Both the position numbers and the translations under genes were made by a program. Source: Escherichia phage vB_EcoP-UTI89UKE2. From it: a stretch of DNA of 44,293 nucleotides. The stretch is taken from the sequence record MZ234049.1; one strand, 5' to 3'. The notes under the pieces are model-generated. The model saw nothing but the letters and a program-made list of their open reading frames with translations. It was not told where the DNA came from and did no database searches. This document shows, piece after piece, positions 4,073 to 31,800 of the stretch. Each line of letters opens with the position of its first letter. The first letter of the stretch is position 1.

Positions 4073-6061
4073 ATGGCTATTATTCAGAATGTACCGTGTC
4101 CTGCCTGTCAAAAGAATGGACATGATATTACTGGCAACCATCTTATGATATTTGAGGATGGCGCTGGTTACTGTAACCGTGGTCACTTCCATGATAACGG
4201 CAAGCCTTATTACCATAAGCCAGAGGGTGGCATCGAGATAACCGAATTACCTATTACTGGCAATATCAAATATACACCTTCTCAGTTTAAAGAGATGGAG
4301 AAGGAAGGGAAGATTAGCGACCCTAAGCTACGCGCCATCGCACTTGGTGGTATGCGTATGAAAGACCGTTGGGAGGTCATGAATGAGCAAGAAAGGGCAG
4401 AACAAGAAGCAGAGTGGAAACTTGATGTTGAATGGTTCCTCACGCTTAAGCGTAAGAATCTTGTTTCCCGACACATTCGCGGCGACATTTGCGCATTGTA
4501 CGATGTACGTGTCGGACACGATGAAGATGGTAGAGTCTCACGGCATTACTATCCACGCTTCGAGAAAGGTGAGCTAGTAGGCGCTAAGTGTCGCACATTA
4601 CCTAAAGACTTTAAGTTTGGTCATTTAGGTAAACTCTTTGGTATGCAAGATCTTTTCGGTATGAATACTTTGTCTCACGTGTTAGACAAGGGAAGACGAA
4701 AGGATTGCTTGCTTATTGTGGGCGGCGAACTGGATGCACTAGCAGCACAGCAAATGCTCCTTGATTCTGCCAAGGGTACTAAGTGGGAAGGCCAGCCTTA
4801 CCATGTATGGTCTGTCAATAAAGGTGAGTCTTGCCTTGAAGAGATAGTACAGAACCGTGAACACATCGCCCAATTTAAGAAGATTATATGGGGTTTTGAT
4901 GGAGATGAGGTAGGGCAGAAGCAGAATCAGCAAGCGGCTCGCCTGTTTCCTGGCAAATCCTATATCCTTGAATACCCTTCTGGTTGCAAAGATGCTAACA
5001 AGGCATTGATGGCTGGCAAGGCTAAAGAGTTTGTTGATGCTTGGTTTAATGCCAAGTCATCTGATGAAGTCTTTGGTAGCCAGATTAAATCTATCGCATC
5101 TCAAAGGGATAAGCTCAAGGCTGCACGTCCAGAGCAAGGGCTATCATGGCCTTGGCCTAAGCTGAACAAGGTAACGCTAGGTATTCGTAAGAACCAGCTT
5201 ATCATTGTAGGTGCAGGTTCTGGTGTAGGTAAGACTGAGTTCCTCCGCGAAGTGGTTAAACATCTCATTGAAGAACACGGTGAATCTGTAGGCATCATTT
5301 CTACAGAAGACCCAATGGTCAAGGTGTCCCGTGCTTTTATCGGCAAGTGGATTGATAAGCGTATTGAGTTACCGCCAACCAACGACCCGAAAGAAGACGG
5401 ATACCGTGAGGTGTTCGACTACACCGAGGAAGAAGCTAACGCTGCCATTGATTATGTAGCTGATACAGGAAAGCTATTTGTGGCTGACCTAGAAGGCGAT
5501 TATTCTATGGAGAAGGTAGAGCAAACTTGCCTAGAGTTTGAGGCTATGGGCATTTCTAATATCATCATTGATAACTTAACGGGGATTAAATTAGATGAGC
5601 GTGCTTTTGGTGGGAAGGTTGGTGCACTTGATGAATGCGTCAAACGAATTGGTACTATCAAAGACCGACATGCGGTTACGATTTTCCTTGTCTCTCACCT
5701 TACACGTCCTCCGGCAAACCGTACCCAACACGAAGAAGGTGGCGAAGTTATCCTTTCTGACTTCCGAGGCTCAGGCGCTATCGGATTCTGGGCATCTTAC
5801 GCCTTGGGGATTGAGCGTAATACAAGAGCTGAAACGCTTGATGAAAGGACTACCACGTACATCTCGTGTGTCAAAGACCGCGATCAAGGTATCTACACTG
5901 GAACCAAGGTCATGCTTAAAGGTGACATTCAGACCGGACGTTTGATGGAACCACAAGCCCGTACTAAGTCATTTGATACAGGTGAAGCAAGGCAGCAAGA
6001 GGTGCCTGATTTACCGGACACTATAGAAGAGACAAACTTTGAAGATGAACAGGAGTTTTAA
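4073..6061 (+). CDS. DNA primase/helicase (T7 gp4-like)
   Basis: N-terminal Cys4 zinc ribbon (CPACQKNGHD...YCNRGH), Walker A GAGSGVGKTEF, and a C-terminal acidic tail ending FEDEQEF as in T7 gp4. Confidence 0.93.
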   Translation: MAIIQNVPCPACQKNGHDITGNHLMIFEDGAGYCNRGHFHDNGKPYYHKPEGGIEITELPITGNIKYTPSQFKEMEKEGKISDPKLRAIALGGMRMKDRWEVMNEQERAEQEAEWKLDVEWFLTLKRKNLVSRHIRGDICALYDVRVGHDEDGRVSRHYYPRFEKGELVGAKCRTLPKDFKFGHLGKLFGMQDLFGMNTLSHVLDKGRRKDCLLIVGGELDALAAQQMLLDSAKGTKWEGQPYHVWSVNKGESCLEEIVQNREHIAQFKKIIWGFDGDEVGQKQNQQAARLFPGKSYILEYPSGCKDANKALMAGKAKEFVDAWFNAKSSDEVFGSQIKSIASQRDKLKAARPEQGLSWPWPKLNKVTLGIRKNQLIIVGAGSGVGKTEFLREVVKHLIEEHGESVGIISTEDPMVKVSRAFIGKWIDKRIELPPTNDPKEDGYREVFDYTEEEANAAIDYVADTGKLFVADLEGDYSMEKVEQTCLEFEAMGISNIIIDNLTGIKLDERAFGGKVGALDECVKRIGTIKDRHAVTIFLVSHLTRPPANRTQHEEGGEVILSDFRGSGAIGFWASYALGIERNTRAETLDERTTTYISCVKDRDQGIYTGTKVMLKGDIQTGRLMEPQARTKSFDTGEARQQEVPDLPDTIEETNFEDEQEF

Positions 6062-12386: not shown

Positions 12387-12409
12387 ATTTACTGGACACT
12401 ATAGAAGAG
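12387..12409 (+). promoter_or_regulatory. phage RNAP promoter (ATTTACTGGACACTATAGAAGAG)
   Basis: Exact consensus. Confidence 0.8.
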
Positions 12410-12889: not shown

Positions 12890-12924
12890 GCCCTGTCTGC
12901 CTTAGTGTAGGCAGGGTCTTTTGC
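12890..12924 (+). terminator. intrinsic terminator-like hairpin (CCCTGTCTGCC-loop-GGCAGGGTC followed by TTTTG)
   Basis: GC-rich perfect stem plus U-run directly after the 123-aa gene. Confidence 0.7.
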
Positions 12925-12948: not shown

Positions 12949-13221
12949 ATGCCGACTATTGAATCTCGAATTGAACTGGACATTAGCTACAATGCAATCA
13001 CCAGACAGTATATTGGGGTTGCCTATGATTACAAAACTGGTGAGAAGCTAGTGGAGGTGAGACAATGGGATGACTATTGGTTAAGACAGAACCTCCATGA
13101 TGCGGTGTCCTCCTTCTTGAAGGAGTGGCCTACATGCGACCAAACTTCGACTTCGGAGCTACAGTATCGGAAGACAATAATCTCATCCTGTGGCCGACTG
13201 AAGGTAATCGAATCGCTTTAA
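12949..13221 (+). CDS. hypothetical protein (90 aa), overlaps the exonuclease start by about 88 nt in another frame
   Basis: RBS GGAGA then ATG at 12949. Confidence 0.4.
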   Translation: MPTIESRIELDISYNAITRQYIGVAYDYKTGEKLVEVRQWDDYWLRQNLHDAVSSFLKEWPTCDQTSTSELQYRKTIISSCGRLKVIESL

Positions 13222-14162
13222 TAGATGCTGATATGTTACCCTACATCGTAGGTTATACAATCAGTGACATGACTTATTTACGAGCCACAACTCGTGTTAA
13301 GTCAGGACAAGTCCCATCAATCAAAGATACGCCTGAGTGTAAGCAAGCGTGTGACCGTGTGAACTCCTTGCTTAACTCTTGGGTGTATGCAGCAGAATGT
13401 GATGCAGCTAAGTTATTCATGACGAAATCAGAAGCTAACTTCCGTGTCCGCCTAGCATTCACCAAGCCTTATAAAGGTCAACGTAAGACCGAGAAGCCTC
13501 CATTCTTCTATGAATTGCGAGAGCATCTCTTAGAGGTTCACGGTGCAATCTTGGCAGATGGAGAGGAAGCAGACGACCTCATGAGTATCGCACAATGGGA
13601 CAGCCACCGCCGCTTCCAGCAAGATACAGGTAACGAGTTCCCTATCGGTAGTCCAGAGCATAAAGCATTCTCTGATACTTGCATCGTTTCCTTGGATAAG
13701 GATTTGATGATTGTTCCCGGTTGGCATCTACAGCCGGGTCAAGAGAAGAAGTGGGTAGAGCCTATGGGCTGGCTTGAGTTACGCCGCAAAGCTAATGGTC
13801 AAGTCAAAGACCTAAAAGGTGCTGGCCTTATGTTCCATTATGCACAGATGATTATCGGTGATGATATTGATAACTATGCTGGCATACCTGGTCGTGGTGC
13901 TAAATATGCCTATGATCTTCTCAAAGGTTGTAAGACAGAGAAAGAATTGTACATGGCAGTGCTTGGTGCTTACAAAGCTAAGTTCGGTCATGGACAGGTT
14001 AAGATTAAGAATTACCGAGGTGGTTATCGGGTGGGCAAAGCCTTTGACCTTATGCTTGAATGCGGTCGCTTAGCTCACATGGCTAGGTTCAAAGGTGATA
14101 TATGGAGAGCCGATAAGAACCCAATCTTGTGGGGAGATGATGCGGAATGGTTAGCAAATTAA
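13134..14162 (+). CDS. 5'-3' exonuclease (T7 gp6 / FEN-like)
   Basis: Motifs IALIDADMLPY, GEEADDLMS, SLDKDLMIVPG and GDDIDNYAGIPGRG; RBS AGGAG at 13121-13125. Confidence 0.85.
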   Translation: MRPNFDFGATVSEDNNLILWPTEGNRIALIDADMLPYIVGYTISDMTYLRATTRVKSGQVPSIKDTPECKQACDRVNSLLNSWVYAAECDAAKLFMTKSEANFRVRLAFTKPYKGQRKTEKPPFFYELREHLLEVHGAILADGEEADDLMSIAQWDSHRRFQQDTGNEFPIGSPEHKAFSDTCIVSLDKDLMIVPGWHLQPGQEKKWVEPMGWLELRRKANGQVKDLKGAGLMFHYAQMIIGDDIDNYAGIPGRGAKYAYDLLKGCKTEKELYMAVLGAYKAKFGHGQVKIKNYRGGYRVGKAFDLMLECGRLAHMARFKGDIWRADKNPILWGDDAEWLAN

Positions 14163-14560
14163 AAGCATCGGAGGTGGCAGCTTATAAGAAGGAATTGCTA
14201 GATAAGCAAGGATGGAAATGCCCTCTGTGTGGTGGCAGTCTCAAAGCTGTCACACCTGTAAACCGTGTACTTGACCATGACCATGAGACAGGATTCTGCC
14301 GTGCTGTTGTATGCCGAGGTTGCAATGGTGCGGAAGGGAAGATTAAGGGTGTTATCTCTGGTTATGGCAAGGCGGGTAATAACCGTTACTTCCAGCTTCA
14401 ATGGTTAGAGAGATTGTATGAATACTGGAAGTTACATAGTACGCCTCAGACAGATAAGTTATATCACAAACATCAAACGGAGGCAGAGAAGCGCGAGGCT
14501 AAGAACCGTAAGGCACGCCTTGCTTATGCAAGAAAGAAGAAGGAGGTTAAAGTTGGGTAA
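14147..14560 (+). CDS. endonuclease VII-like Holliday junction resolvase
   Basis: CPLCGG ... DHDHETG ... CRGCNGAEGK, the zinc-binding and catalytic signature of the T4 endo VII family. Confidence 0.8.
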   Translation: MVSKLKASEVAAYKKELLDKQGWKCPLCGGSLKAVTPVNRVLDHDHETGFCRAVVCRGCNGAEGKIKGVISGYGKAGNNRYFQLQWLERLYEYWKLHSTPQTDKLYHKHQTEAEKREAKNRKARLAYARKKKEVKVG

Positions 14561-15560
14561 GCTTCGCAGCTTGTACAAAGACTCCGAGGTACTTGATGCA
14601 ATCGAGCAAGCTACCGACGAGAAAGGTAATGTTAACTACAACGAGATGGCACGGGTATTATCGTGTCACCCTGTGGGTAAGAAGATTACCCGCCAGTTGG
14701 CTCGATACTGGCATGGTCAATTCAAGAAGACCAAGAAGAATGGTGATTACTACCAGACTCTTCTGCAAGAGGATAAGCGTATCAAAGAAGAGCGTAAGCT
14801 CAGGACTCCTGACCGCTACGAGGATTTGGCTATTGTACCACTGCCTGACTCGCCTCATCGAAGTGTACTGGTAATCCCTGACACTCATGCACCTTACGAG
14901 CACCCAGATATCTTAGAGTTTCTGGCAGCGGTGGCAGCACGTTACCGTCCAGACACTGTAGTTCATCTGGGGGATGAGGCAGATAAACATGCCTTATCGT
15001 TCCACGATTCAGACCCCAATCTGGATAGTGCTGGCATGGAGTTAGAGAAGGCCCGTGTCTTTATGCATAAATTACACAAGATGTTTCCTGTGATGCGCCT
15101 GTGTCATTCTAATCACGGCTCTATGCACTTCCGTAAGGCAAGCGCTAAGGGTATCCCTGTGCAATACTTGCGTACCTATCGAGAAGTCTTCTTTCCGCAT
15201 GGGGGTGGCGACCAGTGGGATTGGCAGCATACACACGTTCTTGAGTTGCCGAATGGTGAACAGGTTGCATTTAAGCATCAACCAGCAGGCTCAGTCTTAG
15301 CAGATGCAGCGCATGAGCGTATGAACCTTGTGTGTGGTCACTTGCATGGTAAGATGTCTGTGGAGTACGCACGTAATACACATGAACAGTATTGGGCTGT
15401 GCAGGGCGGCTGTTTGATTGATGAGTCATCTCGTGCATTTGCCTATGGTCGTGAGTCCAAATACAAGCCAGCATTAGGTTGTGTGGTTATTCTGGAGGGT
15501 GTGCCGCACATTGTCCCGATGCAGACCAATAGTGACAATCGCTGGATTGGTAAGATTTAG
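14553..15560 (+). CDS. calcineurin-like metallophosphoesterase (start uncertain; TTG at 14553 after RBS AGGAGG)
   Basis: Motifs VIPDTHAPYEHPD, HLGDEADKH, CHSNHG and CGHLHG. The track start at 14418 lies inside the endonuclease gene and is unlikely. Confidence 0.75.
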   Translation: MGKLRSLYKDSEVLDAIEQATDEKGNVNYNEMARVLSCHPVGKKITRQLARYWHGQFKKTKKNGDYYQTLLQEDKRIKEERKLRTPDRYEDLAIVPLPDSPHRSVLVIPDTHAPYEHPDILEFLAAVAARYRPDTVVHLGDEADKHALSFHDSDPNLDSAGMELEKARVFMHKLHKMFPVMRLCHSNHGSMHFRKASAKGIPVQYLRTYREVFFPHGGGDQWDWQHTHVLELPNGEQVAFKHQPAGSVLADAAHERMNLVCGHLHGKMSVEYARNTHEQYWAVQGGCLIDESSRAFAYGRESKYKPALGCVVILEGVPHIVPMQTNSDNRWIGKI

Positions 15561-15600
15561 TTGACACTATAGAACAAAGGGTAGGTATTAGCTTACCCTT
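15555..15600 (+). promoter_or_regulatory. phage RNAP promoter (ATTTAGTTGACACTATAGAAC) followed by a leader hairpin (AAGGGTA-loop-TACCCTT)
   Basis: Promoter variant closest to the classical SP6 consensus ATTTAGGTGACACTATAGAAG; the hairpin begins at +1. Confidence 0.7.
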
Positions 15601-15628
15601 GATTGTATAGTGAATGGAGGAATTAATT

Positions 15629-16099
15629 ATGTCAAAGATTTATATTGGCGAATACGTCGTACGCCGTGCAGCTTACCGAGATGCCTTCTGGAATAAACTG
15701 TGTGAAAGCCTAGGCAAGAAACCAGATGGGGTATTCAAAGTATCCCGTGCAGAACCTAATTATAACTCTATTATGTTAGAAGGTGTTGAGAAGCGCGAAT
15801 GGTATGCACCTTACTTCAAGGTTGTTGACTCATTGCAAGATGAAGACCCTAGCACGTTGGACAACAATATGGTTACTAAGCCTAAGCACTATGAGTTCTT
15901 CGATGGGGTAGAGGCAATCACTATCATTGCTCGTAGTATGACCGAGAAGCAATTTGCTGGATATTGCATGGGTAATGCTTTGAAGTATCGTCTGCGTGCA
16001 GGGAAGAAATTCAACACGGAAGAAGATCTGAAGAAAGCAGACTACTACAAAGAGCTATTCCAGAAGCATCGTCACGAATGTATTGATGAGGATATTTAA
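15629..16099 (+). CDS. DUF3310-like phage protein (157 aa)
   Basis: KPKHYEF ... GVEAI ... FAGYCMGNALKYRLRAGKK signature; RBS GGAGG at 15616-15620. Confidence 0.65.
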   Translation: MSKIYIGEYVVRRAAYRDAFWNKLCESLGKKPDGVFKVSRAEPNYNSIMLEGVEKREWYAPYFKVVDSLQDEDPSTLDNNMVTKPKHYEFFDGVEAITIIARSMTEKQFAGYCMGNALKYRLRAGKKFNTEEDLKKADYYKELFQKHRHECIDEDI

Positions 16100-16100
16100 T

Positions 16101-16217
16101 ATGACTTGTCCTAATTGTGGAAGTAAAGAAACAGAACATGTAGTTATGTCAGATACTTATCATTTCTACTTCTGTCATAGCTGCGACACCACCATTGAAG
16201 AGGAAGAAGCTGTATGA
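16101..16217 (+). CDS. small zinc-ribbon protein (38 aa; CPNCG ... CHSCD)
   Basis: Two CxxC pairs; the ATG of the next gene overlaps its stop. Confidence 0.45.
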   Translation: MTCPNCGSKETEHVVMSDTYHFYFCHSCDTTIEEEEAV

Positions 16218-17161
16218 ATATATTCCAATTCCTAGGTCTTCCAGAAGACCACCGCAATCACCCATTCATGCTGGTGAAACATCGCGGTGAAGTACCTGAG
16301 AAGAAATTAACTTTTCCATGTTATGCACAGGTAAAACGAGATGGTATATTTAGTGCTGTGGTTGTTCGCAACGATGGTGTCGTTGGTATCTTTGGACGCA
16401 CTGGAAAGAAACTGGCTAACACGGAAACCTTGGAAGAATCTTATTCAGCTTTCCCTACTGGCATTTATCTCGGTGAGTTGCAATCTATGGCTATTGATGT
16501 CTACCTTGAAGCACTTTCTGGAGTAGTTAACCCTAACCGCACTGAGCCACTGGATTTCATAGGCCAGCAGATTAAAGACAACCTGTATATTGACTTCTTC
16601 GATATGTTAACTATTAAGGCATTCCATGATGGATTCACTGATGTTTCTTATCTCAAACGTTACGATGCTTTACATCGTCGCATCGGCGCTAATCTTAGCG
16701 GGTACAACGCTATCCTTCCTATTACTCCTTGCCATAATGAGCGAGAAGTTGAAGCGTTTGCGCAAGAGCAAATAGACGCAGGCCGAGAGGGTGCTGTGTT
16801 TAAACTGGACTGTGATTATGAAGCAGGCCACAAAGGTTATCGTCAGACTAAAGAAGTCCGTAAGGTAACTTATGACCTTACTTGTATTGGCTTTGAAGAA
16901 GGCAAAGGTAAGTACAAAGGTAAGGTAGCTAACCTCATTTTCAAATGGAAAGGAGGCAAGACAATCAAAGCTATGTTAGGTAAAGGGTGGACTCATGCAG
17001 ATGCAGAACAGATGTTCCACGATATTAAACATGGTGGACGATTGAATGTCATTGGTAAAATCTTTGAAGTAAAAGGTCTTCAGGATTCAAGCAAGGGCAA
17101 CATTCGTCTGCCCAAAGCGGGAGAATTAAGACATGACAAAGATGAACCAGATTTCTTTTGA
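16214..17161 (+). CDS. ATP-dependent DNA ligase
   Basis: Adenylation motif VKRDG near the N-terminus; size and position typical of T7-group ligases. Confidence 0.85.
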   Translation: MNIFQFLGLPEDHRNHPFMLVKHRGEVPEKKLTFPCYAQVKRDGIFSAVVVRNDGVVGIFGRTGKKLANTETLEESYSAFPTGIYLGELQSMAIDVYLEALSGVVNPNRTEPLDFIGQQIKDNLYIDFFDMLTIKAFHDGFTDVSYLKRYDALHRRIGANLSGYNAILPITPCHNEREVEAFAQEQIDAGREGAVFKLDCDYEAGHKGYRQTKEVRKVTYDLTCIGFEEGKGKYKGKVANLIFKWKGGKTIKAMLGKGWTHADAEQMFHDIKHGGRLNVIGKIFEVKGLQDSSKGNIRLPKAGELRHDKDEPDFF

Positions 17162-17348
17162 TAGCATGAAGGCAACTCGTGCAGTTGAGGTAGCAGAAGC
17201 TATCTTTGAAACTTTATCCTGTGGCATGGAATTGCCGTATACTTTACTGGCTGATGCAGAAGAGCTTGGTCTTTCTGTAGAAGCTATCCAAGAGAAGGTT
17301 GAAGAACTCTATGGTACAGACGAAGAAGAAACCGACGATTTCATTTGA
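17133..17348 (+). CDS. hypothetical acidic protein (71 aa) ending TDEEETDDFI
   Basis: ORF overlapping the ligase 3' end. Confidence 0.45.
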   Translation: MTKMNQISFDSMKATRAVEVAEAIFETLSCGMELPYTLLADAEELGLSVEAIQEKVEELYGTDEEETDDFI

Positions 17349-28862: not shown

Positions 28863-31800
28863 ATGGAACAAGACATTAAGACTAATTGGGCTGGATATGT
28901 CCAGTCTACTCCTGAGCCGTTTTCTATTGAGGCGGCTCCGGTATCGGCTCCTACGATACGCCAGCGTAATGAGTTACAAGAGCAAGTTCTTGAAGCTAAA
29001 GCTGACGCTGATATTTTAGGTGCTGTAGGTGCTGCCTTCCAGAATGAGTGGTTGGCATTCGGAGGCAAGCGGTGGTATGACCGTGCCACTGCTGATTTCA
29101 CACCTCAACCAGACTTTGAGATACAACCTGAGCAACGTGAAGCACTACGTTTCAAATATGGTACGGATATGATGCAGACAATCACTGAGGGTGTTCGTTC
29201 TGAGGATGAATTGAACTTCCGTATTCAGAATGCTGATGAAGACCTTGAGCGCAATAAGCGCATTGCTCAGGCTGGCTGGGTTGGCTCTGTGGCGACGATT
29301 GGCGCTGCTGTGCTTGACCCTGTGGGATGGGTTGCCTCTATTCCAACCGGTGGTGCCGCTAAAGTTGGACTCGTAGGACGTGCTGTGCGTGGCGCTATCG
29401 CCGCTGGCGTGAGTAATGCCGCTATTGAATCCGTATTGGTCCAAGGTGACATGACTCGTGATTTAGATGACATTATGGTAGCACTAGGTTCCGGTATGGC
29501 GATGGGTGGCGTTATTGGCGCTGTAGCGCGTGGTAGGGCCACTAAGCTCAGTGAGCAAGGGGATGACAGGGCTGCGAGCATTGTGCGCAGTGCAGACGCA
29601 GGGGACCGCTATGTGCGTGCTGTTGCTGATGATAGTATCGGTGCGATGCGTGTTAAGGGTGAAGAGGTACTCACGGAGGGTGCATTTGATGTCTCTAGCA
29701 AAGGTGAAGATTTGCTGAAAACCCTACAGCGGGAAGGTAATGCAATTGATATGACCCCTCGCCGCTGGGCCGGAACTCTGTCTGCCCTTGGTACTGTCGT
29801 ACATTCCTCTCAGGATGCAAGTGTACGCGGCCTTGGTGCTCGCCTGTTTGAGTCCCCCCAAGGCTTAGGTATGCAGAAGGCATCTGCTAGTCTCATGCAG
29901 AATACTAACTTGAACCGTCTGAAATCTGCTGATATGAATCGTTTCAACGATGGGTTCGATTTATGGCTCAAAGAGAATAATATCAACCCGGTTGCAGGTC
30001 ATACTAACTCTCACTATGTGCAGCAATATAATGAGAAGGTATGGGAAGCTGTACGCATCGGTATGGACGAGTCTACGCCTAAGTCTATCCGTATGGCAGC
30101 AGAGGGGCAGCAAGCTATGTATCGTGAAGCATTAGCATTACGTCAACGCTCTGGTGAAGCTGGGTTTGAAAAGGTTAAAGCAGATGATAAGTACATGCCT
30201 GATATTTTTGACAGTATGAAGGCTCGTCGTCAATTCAGTATGCACGATAAAGAGGACATCATTGAGTTATTCTCTCGTGCATACCAGAATGGTTCTCGTA
30301 AGGTTCCAAAGGAAGTGGCTGATGATATTGCACGAGCACAAGTAAACCGCGTTGCTGATGCCACCTTGACCGGACAGCTTAGCTTTGAAAAGGCTATGTC
30401 TGGTCAAACCAAAGCAGAATATGAAGCACTCATGCGCAAAGCAGGCTTTAGTGATGAAGAGATTGAAAAGATGGTAGAAGCTCTGGATAATAAAGAAACC
30501 AGAGATAATATCTCTAACCGAGCTAAGATGAGTTTAGGCTTAGATGTTACTCAAGAGTACAATGGTATTCGTATGCGTGACTTTATGAACACTAACGTGG
30601 AAGAGTTAACAGATAACTACATGAAGGAAGCGGCAGGTGGTGCTGCCTTGGCTCGTCAAGGTTTCTCTACCTATCAGGCTGCACTTAATGCAATTGATCT
30701 TGTAGAGCGAAATGCACGAAATGCAGCTAAAGATACAAAAGCACACGCACAATTTGAAGCGGAGTCGGCTAAGATCCGTCAATCAGAGCCTGATTACAAG
30801 AAGGCACAAGAGAAGATTGAAGAGTTAAAGAAGCGACTTAAATTGAAAGAGAAAGATGAAGCAGCAGGTCTGGCTATTGATGAAGAAATCCGTCAGATGC
30901 GAGAGGGGCTTCGCTTGATTATGGGTAAATCTATCGATTCAAACCCACAAGATTTGTCTACTAAAATGCTGCGTCGTGGGCGTGACATTACAGGCGTACT
31001 TCGCTTAGGTCAGATGGGCTTCGCACAGCTAGGTGAACTTGCTAACTTCATGGGTGAGTTTGGTATTGCTGCCACCACTATGGCTTTAGGTAAGCAATTC
31101 CGCTTCACCTCTAAGGCGTTGCGTAATGGCGATGGCTTCTTTCGAGATAAGAATTTAGCTGAGGTTGAGCGAATGGTAGGTTACATTGGTGAAGACAACT
31201 GGCTAACAACTAAGGGTGCGCGTCCAGATGAGTTTGGTGATGTAACCACAGTGCGAGGTATGATGGCCCATTTTGACCAGTCCATGAACTCTATACGACG
31301 TGCTCAGACAAACCTATCCCTCTTCCGCATGGCACAGGGTTCTCTGGAGCGAATGACCAATAGGCAAATAGCTTTGTCTTTCATTGACCACCTTGAAGGC
31401 AAGAAGATTATCCCTCAGAAGAAACTGGAGGAACTTGGTCTTACTCAGGGGTTCATGACTAACCTACAGAAGCACTATGATGCTAACTCTAAAGGTTCTG
31501 GCTTGCTTGGCTTTGATACAATGCCTTATGCCATGGGTGAAACTTTAGCTAATGCTATTCGTCGTAAGTCAGGTCTAATTATCCAACGTAACTTCATTGG
31601 TGATGAAGGTATCTGGATGAACAAAGCACTAGGTAAGACATTTGCACAGCTTAAGTCATTCTCTCTTGTATCTGGTGAGAAGCAATTTGGTCGAGGGATT
31701 CGACACGATAAAATTGGTCTTGCTAAGAAGACAGCTTACGGGTTTGCTTTGGGTTCAATAGTGTATGCGGCAAAAGCCTATGTGAACTCTATTGGGCGAG

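Follow-up and report, generated by a model that had tools for sequence, protein, structure and literature searches.

What does the metallophosphoesterase encoded in the DNA replication block of an SP6/K1E-group phage do, and where does its reading frame begin? We addressed these questions for the 44,293-nucleotide sequence of Escherichia phage vB_EcoP-UTI89UKE2 (MZ234049.1; the whole stretch is called the window here), in which the gene occupies positions 14553-15560 on the plus strand, immediately after genes for a T7 gp6-like 5'-3' exonuclease and an endonuclease VII. Its 335-residue product is a homolog of SP6 gp23 and matches both phrog_221 and Pfam Metallophos. A sequence-only reading had placed the start, with reservations, at TTG 14553, and had offered two identities for the product: a protein phosphatase, or an Mre11/SbcD-like nuclease acting with the neighbouring resolvase. 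We find an intact catalytic core that belongs to neither of these families, and we see roughly even chances that the protein is a metal-dependent DNA phosphodiesterase aiding the processing of replication intermediates or of host DNA. The (metallo)phosphoesterase annotation was already known from the record MZ234050.1, identical at this locus, and from hundreds of relatives; what is added here is a settled start, the rejection of two textbook families, a link to the gp47/gp48 nuclease group of mycobacteriophages, and a pattern of fused DNA-binding domains.

An intact catalytic core and its family

The catalytic metallophosphoesterase core spans residues 102-335 (14856-15560, plus strand) and corresponds to stand-alone proteins of ~235 residues in other phages. 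We examined its motifs in two alignments, A1 (25 relatives, 49-87% identity) and A2 (54 diverse sequences, down to 28% identity). Five motifs are present on the plus strand: motif I, D110-T-H112 (14880-14888); motif II, G140-D141-E-A-D144-K-H146 (14970-14990); the GNH[D/E]-like motif III, S186-N187-H188-G189 (15108-15119); motif IV, H242 (15276-15278); and motif V, G262-H263-L-H265 (15336-15347), which was also recovered in the profile comparison with Bxb1 gp47 described below. All of these listed residues are invariant in A1. Across A2, G140, D141, N187, H188, H263, and H265 are invariant, and D110, H112, H242, and G262 are retained in at least 90% of sequences. The complete calcineurin-like motif set described in the sequence-only reading is therefore borne out, with the metal-ligand residues kept in both alignments. 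By analogy with the canonical motif set, D110, H112, the bridging D141, N187, H242, H263, and H265 would hold a dimetal centre, and H188 would serve as the catalytic histidine.

Profile scores agree with this assignment. Pfam Metallophos (PF00149) gives the window protein 23.4 bits, marginally above its gathering threshold of 21.5 (expect value (E) 9e-5), and also matches 29 of the 54 family members, and the phrog_221 profile, named "metallo-phosphoesterase", matches with E 7e-105 over positions 16-358 of 367. Five motifs, a profile score above threshold, and a beta-sandwich metallophosphoesterase fold together place the protein in the calcineurin-like superfamily, and an active phosphodiesterase of PHROG 221 is, in our judgement, highly probable.

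We compared the A2 family profile with candidate families using hhalign. Lambda NinI aligned with 42% probability over motifs I-III only, T4 gp47 with 31% probability over 25 residues, and E. coli SbcD with 12% probability over 44 residues. The profile thus fits neither family named in the sequence-only reading, whereas Bxb1 gp47 aligned with 96.9% probability (E 1.5e-10) over 202 columns that include motifs I-V and the C-terminal strands. We reject membership of the lambda-phosphatase (PPP) family on the basis of this short NinI match together with the missing PPP signature (GDxHG, GDxVDRG, GNHE), in place of which the window protein reads PDTHAPY, GDEADKH, and SNHG. The window protein and NinI do resemble each other in setting, since NinI too is a phage metallophosphoesterase, and its gene in lambda is close to one for a junction endonuclease (NinG/Rap). 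Membership of Mre11/SbcD is contradicted by the low hhalign probabilities, by an NCBIfam scan that returned only sub-threshold PdeM and YfcE matches and no SbcD or Mre11 model at E <=1, and by the lack of a capping domain or a Rad50/SbcC partner: the protein ends ~70 residues past motif V, this tail aligns to the gp47 core and not to a capping domain, and no Rad50/SbcC-like gene is listed in the fully annotated 45-kb genome of one close relative. What the window protein has in common with Mre11/SbcD, T4 gp47 included, is the binuclear metallophosphoesterase fold and motif set, without a specific sequence relationship.

The sole hhalign match to T4 gp47 pairs GSMHFRKASAKGIPVQYLRTYREVF (15117-15200, residues 189-216) with GFYFYKGMKSHGLEPDFLKTYKEVW (T4 gp47 residues 158-182); this similarity may be due to chance or to a helix common to both proteins between motifs III and IV. 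Sequence searches of the PDB yielded no usable relative for the window protein, for the profile of 54 sequences, or for Bxb1 gp47, and Foldseek against the PDB gave generic matches only, at template modelling (TM) scores of ~0.5 (Vps29, LpxH, Pol delta B), from which a subfamily is not assignable.

Bxb1 gp47 itself matches phrog_221 with E 4.5e-116. On these profile comparisons, we assign the window protein to PHROG 221, a remote-homology family that also holds Bxb1 gp47, L5 gp54, and A10ZJ24 gp48. These mycobacteriophage proteins resemble it in their PHROG 221 profile and in the whole-core alignment, and the Bxb1 replication block likewise contains endonuclease VII and exonuclease genes. There are also clear differences. 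Profile identity between gp47 and the window protein is ~21%; gp47 is a stand-alone 255-residue core without the N-terminal domain that the window protein carries; and its motif I reads D-T-Q, in contrast to D-T-H in the window protein. Moreover, gp47 doubles as a serine-integrase directionality factor, whereas no such integrase is annotated for this lytic phage, as judged from the annotation of a close relative.

Directly after motif II lies a family-specific loop, ADKHALSFHDSDPNLDSAG (residues 143-161; 14979-15035, plus strand), that is near-invariant in A1. Residues 143-159 are the sole part of the structural model with a predicted local distance difference test (pLDDT) score <50. Bxb1 gp47 has a different sequence at this position, and the invariant loop is a property of the window protein's own family. 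Several metagenome homologs carry intein-like insertions of ~300 residues that begin with Cys, end in ..N|C, and interrupt the catalytic motifs, either after the GDE of motif II (P0121, P0132, and P0163) or after the DLH of motif I (P0167). The P0167 insertion matches LAGLIDADG_3, and the other three have no Pfam match. Inteins have been described at a conserved metallophosphoesterase motif of the recombination directionality factors of cluster A1 mycobacteriophages (PMC5050341); the conserved motifs hit by inteins are the same in the two groups.

The N-terminal domain (residues 1-98; 14553-14846, plus strand) is helical, with a three-helix helix-turn-helix (HTH)/Myb-like fold in the model and invariant residues M32, L36, L49, Y52, W53, Q56, and R81. 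Many homologs consist of the ~235-residue core only, and others carry N-terminal extensions of 50-250 residues. We scanned nine such extensions, and all nine gave a Pfam HTH-type or HNH_repeat match at E <0.1; in several, HTH_23, HTH_3, HTH_psq, HTH_38, HTH_IclR, and HNH_repeat (E 4.7e-14) scored above curated thresholds. The N-terminal domain of the window protein itself has no Pfam match, and its profile showed no similarity to that of one classic HTH extension (0.1% probability). From the modelled fold, it is plausible that this domain binds DNA.

A possible role on DNA and its rivals

Our favoured model is that of an enzyme core fused to a small three-helix N-terminal domain, probably DNA-binding, and produced from the same transcript as the exonuclease and endonuclease VII, probably with translational coupling. 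The enzyme would be a Mn2+/Mg2+-dependent endo- or exonuclease that hydrolyses DNA phosphodiester bonds at its dimetal centre, and the N-terminal domain would tether it to DNA or to a partner. While the phage replicates and recombines its DNA, the enzyme would trim or degrade ends and branches; it would possibly help to break down host DNA, and it would complement the T7 gp6-like exonuclease and the endonuclease VII junction resolvase, perhaps in cooperation with the latter. That DNA is the physiological substrate is a proposition that we regard as evenly balanced.

Several lines of evidence favour this model: the profile link to gp47, the HTH and homing-endonuclease (HNH_repeat) modules fused to other family members, the three-helix fold modelled for the window protein's own N-terminal domain, the recurrent proximity of endonuclease VII, the conservation of the catalytic residues, and published activities of the gp47 group. 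Bxb1 gp47 serves the serine integrase of that phage as directionality factor, and a second, replication role was proposed for it early on, with reference to homologs in phages with other integrases and to its gene's location among replication genes (PMC1470463); a result on gp47 and replication (Savinov 2012) is relayed in PMC11795197. For the cluster A homolog A10ZJ24 gp48, phosphodiesterase activity has been demonstrated: in vitro it breaks down DNA in linear, plasmid, and genomic form, and in vivo it fragments the DNA of the host. Mutating its motifs abolishes activity, and without it phage DNA does not replicate in M. tuberculosis (PMC12287305). Because of these activities, the nuclease role in replication or recombination raised in the sequence-only reading is better supported than the phosphatase role, even though neither of its two families holds.

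Several observations weigh against a DNA-directed role. The link to gp47 is remote, with a pairwise BLASTP alignment of 40 residues at 30% identity, so that transferring function from gp47 is risky; DNase activity and a requirement in phage replication are known for the mycobacteriophage members only. The nuclease activity published for Bxb1 gp47 was weak, and contamination was a possibility that its authors were unable to exclude. Fold searches do not single out nucleases, their top matches being the generic phosphodiesterases MJ0936 and YfcE, Vps29, and LpxH. The literature on SP6 gp23 and the phosphoesterases of Autographiviridae yielded genome descriptions only, with no experiment on any member. 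Finally, gene position is not fixed: KP34-like phages have the gene 2-3 kb from endonuclease VII, and the endonuclease VII and phosphoesterase genes of several K1-specific relatives have an HNH homing endonuclease gene between them.

Of the rival explanations, the one that survives best, at a low probability, is a small-molecule nucleotide phosphodiesterase acting on cyclic or linear (oligo)nucleotides, 2',3'-cyclic nucleoside monophosphates, or diadenosine tetraphosphate (Ap4A), either in nucleotide salvage with the neighbouring deoxynucleoside monophosphate kinase or in the destruction of a host immune signalling nucleotide. MJ0936 and YfcE resemble the window protein at the level of fold only, at 10-11% identity; they lack its N-terminal domain and 143-161 loop, and their own physiological substrates are unclear. 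With the YfcE model TIGR00040 the score is 10.6 bits, far short of the cutoff at 56.25, and a PADLOC scan gave no defence-related match. The DNA-binding modules fused to many family members are hard to explain in terms of a small-molecule substrate, and the kinase is absent or non-adjacent in many related loci.

Less probable is a DNA end-healing 3'-phosphatase or 2',3'-cyclic phosphodiesterase that, like the phosphoesterase module of bacterial Pnkp, would ready nicks or ends for the phage ATP-dependent DNA ligase encoded two genes downstream. PdeM, the ligase-associated endonuclease (TIGR04123), was matched over 33 residues at 16.1 bits, where the cutoff is 150; the kinase encoded next door is a nucleotide kinase of the T7 gp1.7 family and not a polynucleotide kinase; and the linkage to ligase is lost in the KP34-like group.

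A protein phosphatase of the lambda NinI kind, acting on Ser/Thr/Tyr, is in our view unlikely. Homologs bear the name "phosphatase 2a-like protein" in some GenBank records, and hhalign does align NinI motifs I-III, but this partial match and the absent PPP motifs leave the protein-phosphatase option of the sequence-only reading poorly supported. A true Mre11/SbcD-type nuclease acting on double-strand breaks or hairpins is equally unlikely given the family evidence above; both kinds of protein could plausibly act as nucleases in phage recombination. The least probable rival is a non-catalytic replication accessory subunit that keeps the fold only, like the eukaryotic polymerase B subunits or Vps29: fold searches do rank Vps29 and the B subunits of Pol delta, Pol alpha, and Pol epsilon near the top, and Bxb1 gp47 assists integrase as a cofactor that binds protein, but inactive polymerase B subunits have lost catalytic and metal-ligand residues, which in this family are invariant or nearly so across hundreds of divergent homologs, and the mycobacteriophage relative loses its function when its catalytic site is mutated (PMC12287305).

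Start codon, distribution, and the deposited annotation

The reading frame is closed by TAG 15558-15560 and open since 14418, with in-frame start candidates at ATG 14418, TTG 14520, ATG 14526, TTG 14553, and later positions. Only TTG 14553 among these has a strong ribosome-binding site: AAGGAGGT (14540-14547) followed by a 5-nucleotide spacer and the TTG at 14553-14555 on the plus strand. We aligned 47 related loci and found a start codon at the corresponding position, or within a few codons of it, in every one. K1E-like and SP6-like phages have TTG as the aligned codon, other loci have GTG, and distant relatives have ATG. In four loci (L021 and L025-L027), a stop codon lies directly upstream of the GTG at this position, and four others (L010-L013) offer no in-frame start apart from the TTG. 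With few exceptions, homologs at close and middle distance measure 329-340 residues, ~335 being the standard length, and begin M-[GAS]-K-[LI]-R; translation of the window from TTG 14553 gives fMet-GKLRSLYK. We rejected the longer open reading frame from ATG 14418, as annotated in MZ234050.1, since it runs over the conserved C-terminal part of endonuclease VII and since the frame in relatives holds stop codons or lacks a start. From the ribosome-binding site, the comparative start positions, and the overlap of the long form with endonuclease VII, we conclude that TTG 14553 is the true start, as the sequence-only reading had proposed, and that the MZ234050.1 start is wrong.

The record MZ234050.1 describes Escherichia phage vB_EcoP-UTI89UKE3 (44,294 bp; Vectrevirus, Autographiviridae, Molineuxvirinae, SP6/K1E group), which is 100% identical to the window over positions 13000-17200; its coordinates minus 1 give window coordinates. 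In that record, the phosphoesterase begins at ATG 14418 (record position 14419), no endonuclease VII coding sequence is present, and a 43-residue "hypothetical protein" is placed in another frame at window positions 14277-14408, where RefSeq relatives have endonuclease VII. Both the start and the omission of endonuclease VII are errors of annotation at this locus. RefSeq relatives annotate a 1008-nucleotide coding sequence of identical extent to ours, and orthology to SP6 gp23 is stated in RefSeq.

Many K1E-like and SP6-like phages are 93-99% identical to the window over positions 13000-17200. We found 2774 homologs of the protein, in 1680 clusters at 50% identity, and tblastn located the gene in 643 or more phage genomes on deposit, almost all of them from Autographiviridae, with many Klebsiella, E. 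coli K1, and Pseudomonas phages among the carriers. Judged by this conservation, which goes far beyond chance, the gene is real. Direct orthologs at 44-99% identity occur in SP6 (gp23), K1E, K1-5, ACG-C91, and the KP34-like and PhiM1-like Autographiviridae. The closer orthologs (to ~44% identity) match the window protein in length, at ~335 residues, and in start, and those of SP6-like phages also match in genome place. KP34-like orthologs differ in their place within the replication block and otherwise show no substantive difference.

Neighbouring genes, transcription, and implications

The phosphoesterase gene lies in the DNA replication block, between the exonuclease and endonuclease VII genes on one side and the kinase and ligase genes on the other. 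The 137-residue endonuclease VII (14147-14560, plus strand) matches Pfam Endonuclease_7 with E 1.6e-12 and phrog_423 with E 3.6e-48 over residues 2-136. The TTG start of the phosphoesterase falls in the last 8 nucleotides of this gene, which bears out the position directly after an endonuclease VII-like gene given in the sequence-only reading. The endonuclease VII start, in turn, lies 16 nucleotides inside the end of the exonuclease gene (13125-14162, plus strand; phrog_107, E 6e-73), for which the start candidates are GTG 13125, from the list of open reading frames, and ATG 13134, annotated in MZ234050.1. Given these overlaps of 8 and 16 nucleotides, the three genes are probably translationally coupled.

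Endonuclease VII is encoded directly upstream of the phosphoesterase in 55 of 80 related viral contigs, where the exonuclease gene joins the pair, and 2-3 kb downstream, in the same replication block, in another 15; it was not found in the remaining 10, mostly loci with incomplete flanks. Variation in the position of the phosphoesterase gene between KP34-like and PhiM1-like phages has been described previously (PMC6115819). Tight coupling is not obligatory, since the HNH homing endonuclease noted above separates the two genes in several K1-specific relatives; in one of these, L084 (NC_047807.1), its gene at 29932-30363 breaks the overlap seen in the window.

The phosphoesterase stop codon is overlapped by an SP6-type phage promoter, ATTTAGTTGACACTATAGAA (15555-15574, plus strand), which departs from the SP6 consensus at one position and begins the next transcription unit, with the kinase and ligase genes. 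The nearest upstream SP6-type promoter is a consensus match at 12387-12406 on the plus strand. Between these two promoters lie the gp20-like, exonuclease, endonuclease VII, and phosphoesterase genes, all four of which are probably driven by the promoter at 12387. Allowing up to three mismatches to the consensus, we found eight SP6-type promoters in the window, compared with 0 expected in shuffled sequences. All eight are on the plus strand, starting at 6009, 6857, 10385, 12387, 15555, 20636, 37863, and 43959, and together they outline the phage's transcription units. A terminator-like hairpin of 11 pairs followed by CTTTTG (12890-12917) lies between the gp20-like reading frame and the exonuclease gene, inside the unit expected to express the exonuclease, endonuclease VII, and phosphoesterase. 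The predicted transcript from ATTTAGTTGACACTATAGAA starts with a 10-bp hairpin (15577-15600; folding free energy -13.8 kcal/mol, z-score -2.55) that may influence processing or stability upstream of the kinase gene.

A more specific extension of the nuclease model is tentative, and we think it rather less likely to be right than wrong. In this extension, the gp23-type protein would be a DNA-tethered, Rad50-independent metallophosphoesterase nuclease that forms a conserved three-enzyme set with the exonuclease and endonuclease VII, an analogous set would exist in cluster A mycobacteriophages, and the 143-161 loop would be a substrate or partner flap defining a new nuclease subclass. If this is true, such an enzyme would take part in breakdown of the host chromosome, in processing of replication intermediates, or in both, and would help the phage to blunt host defence. 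More generally, the link to gp47 and gp48 provides a testable hypothesis for this widespread phage protein: that it is a DNA nuclease which the phage needs to replicate or to take over its host, with a possible effect on host range.

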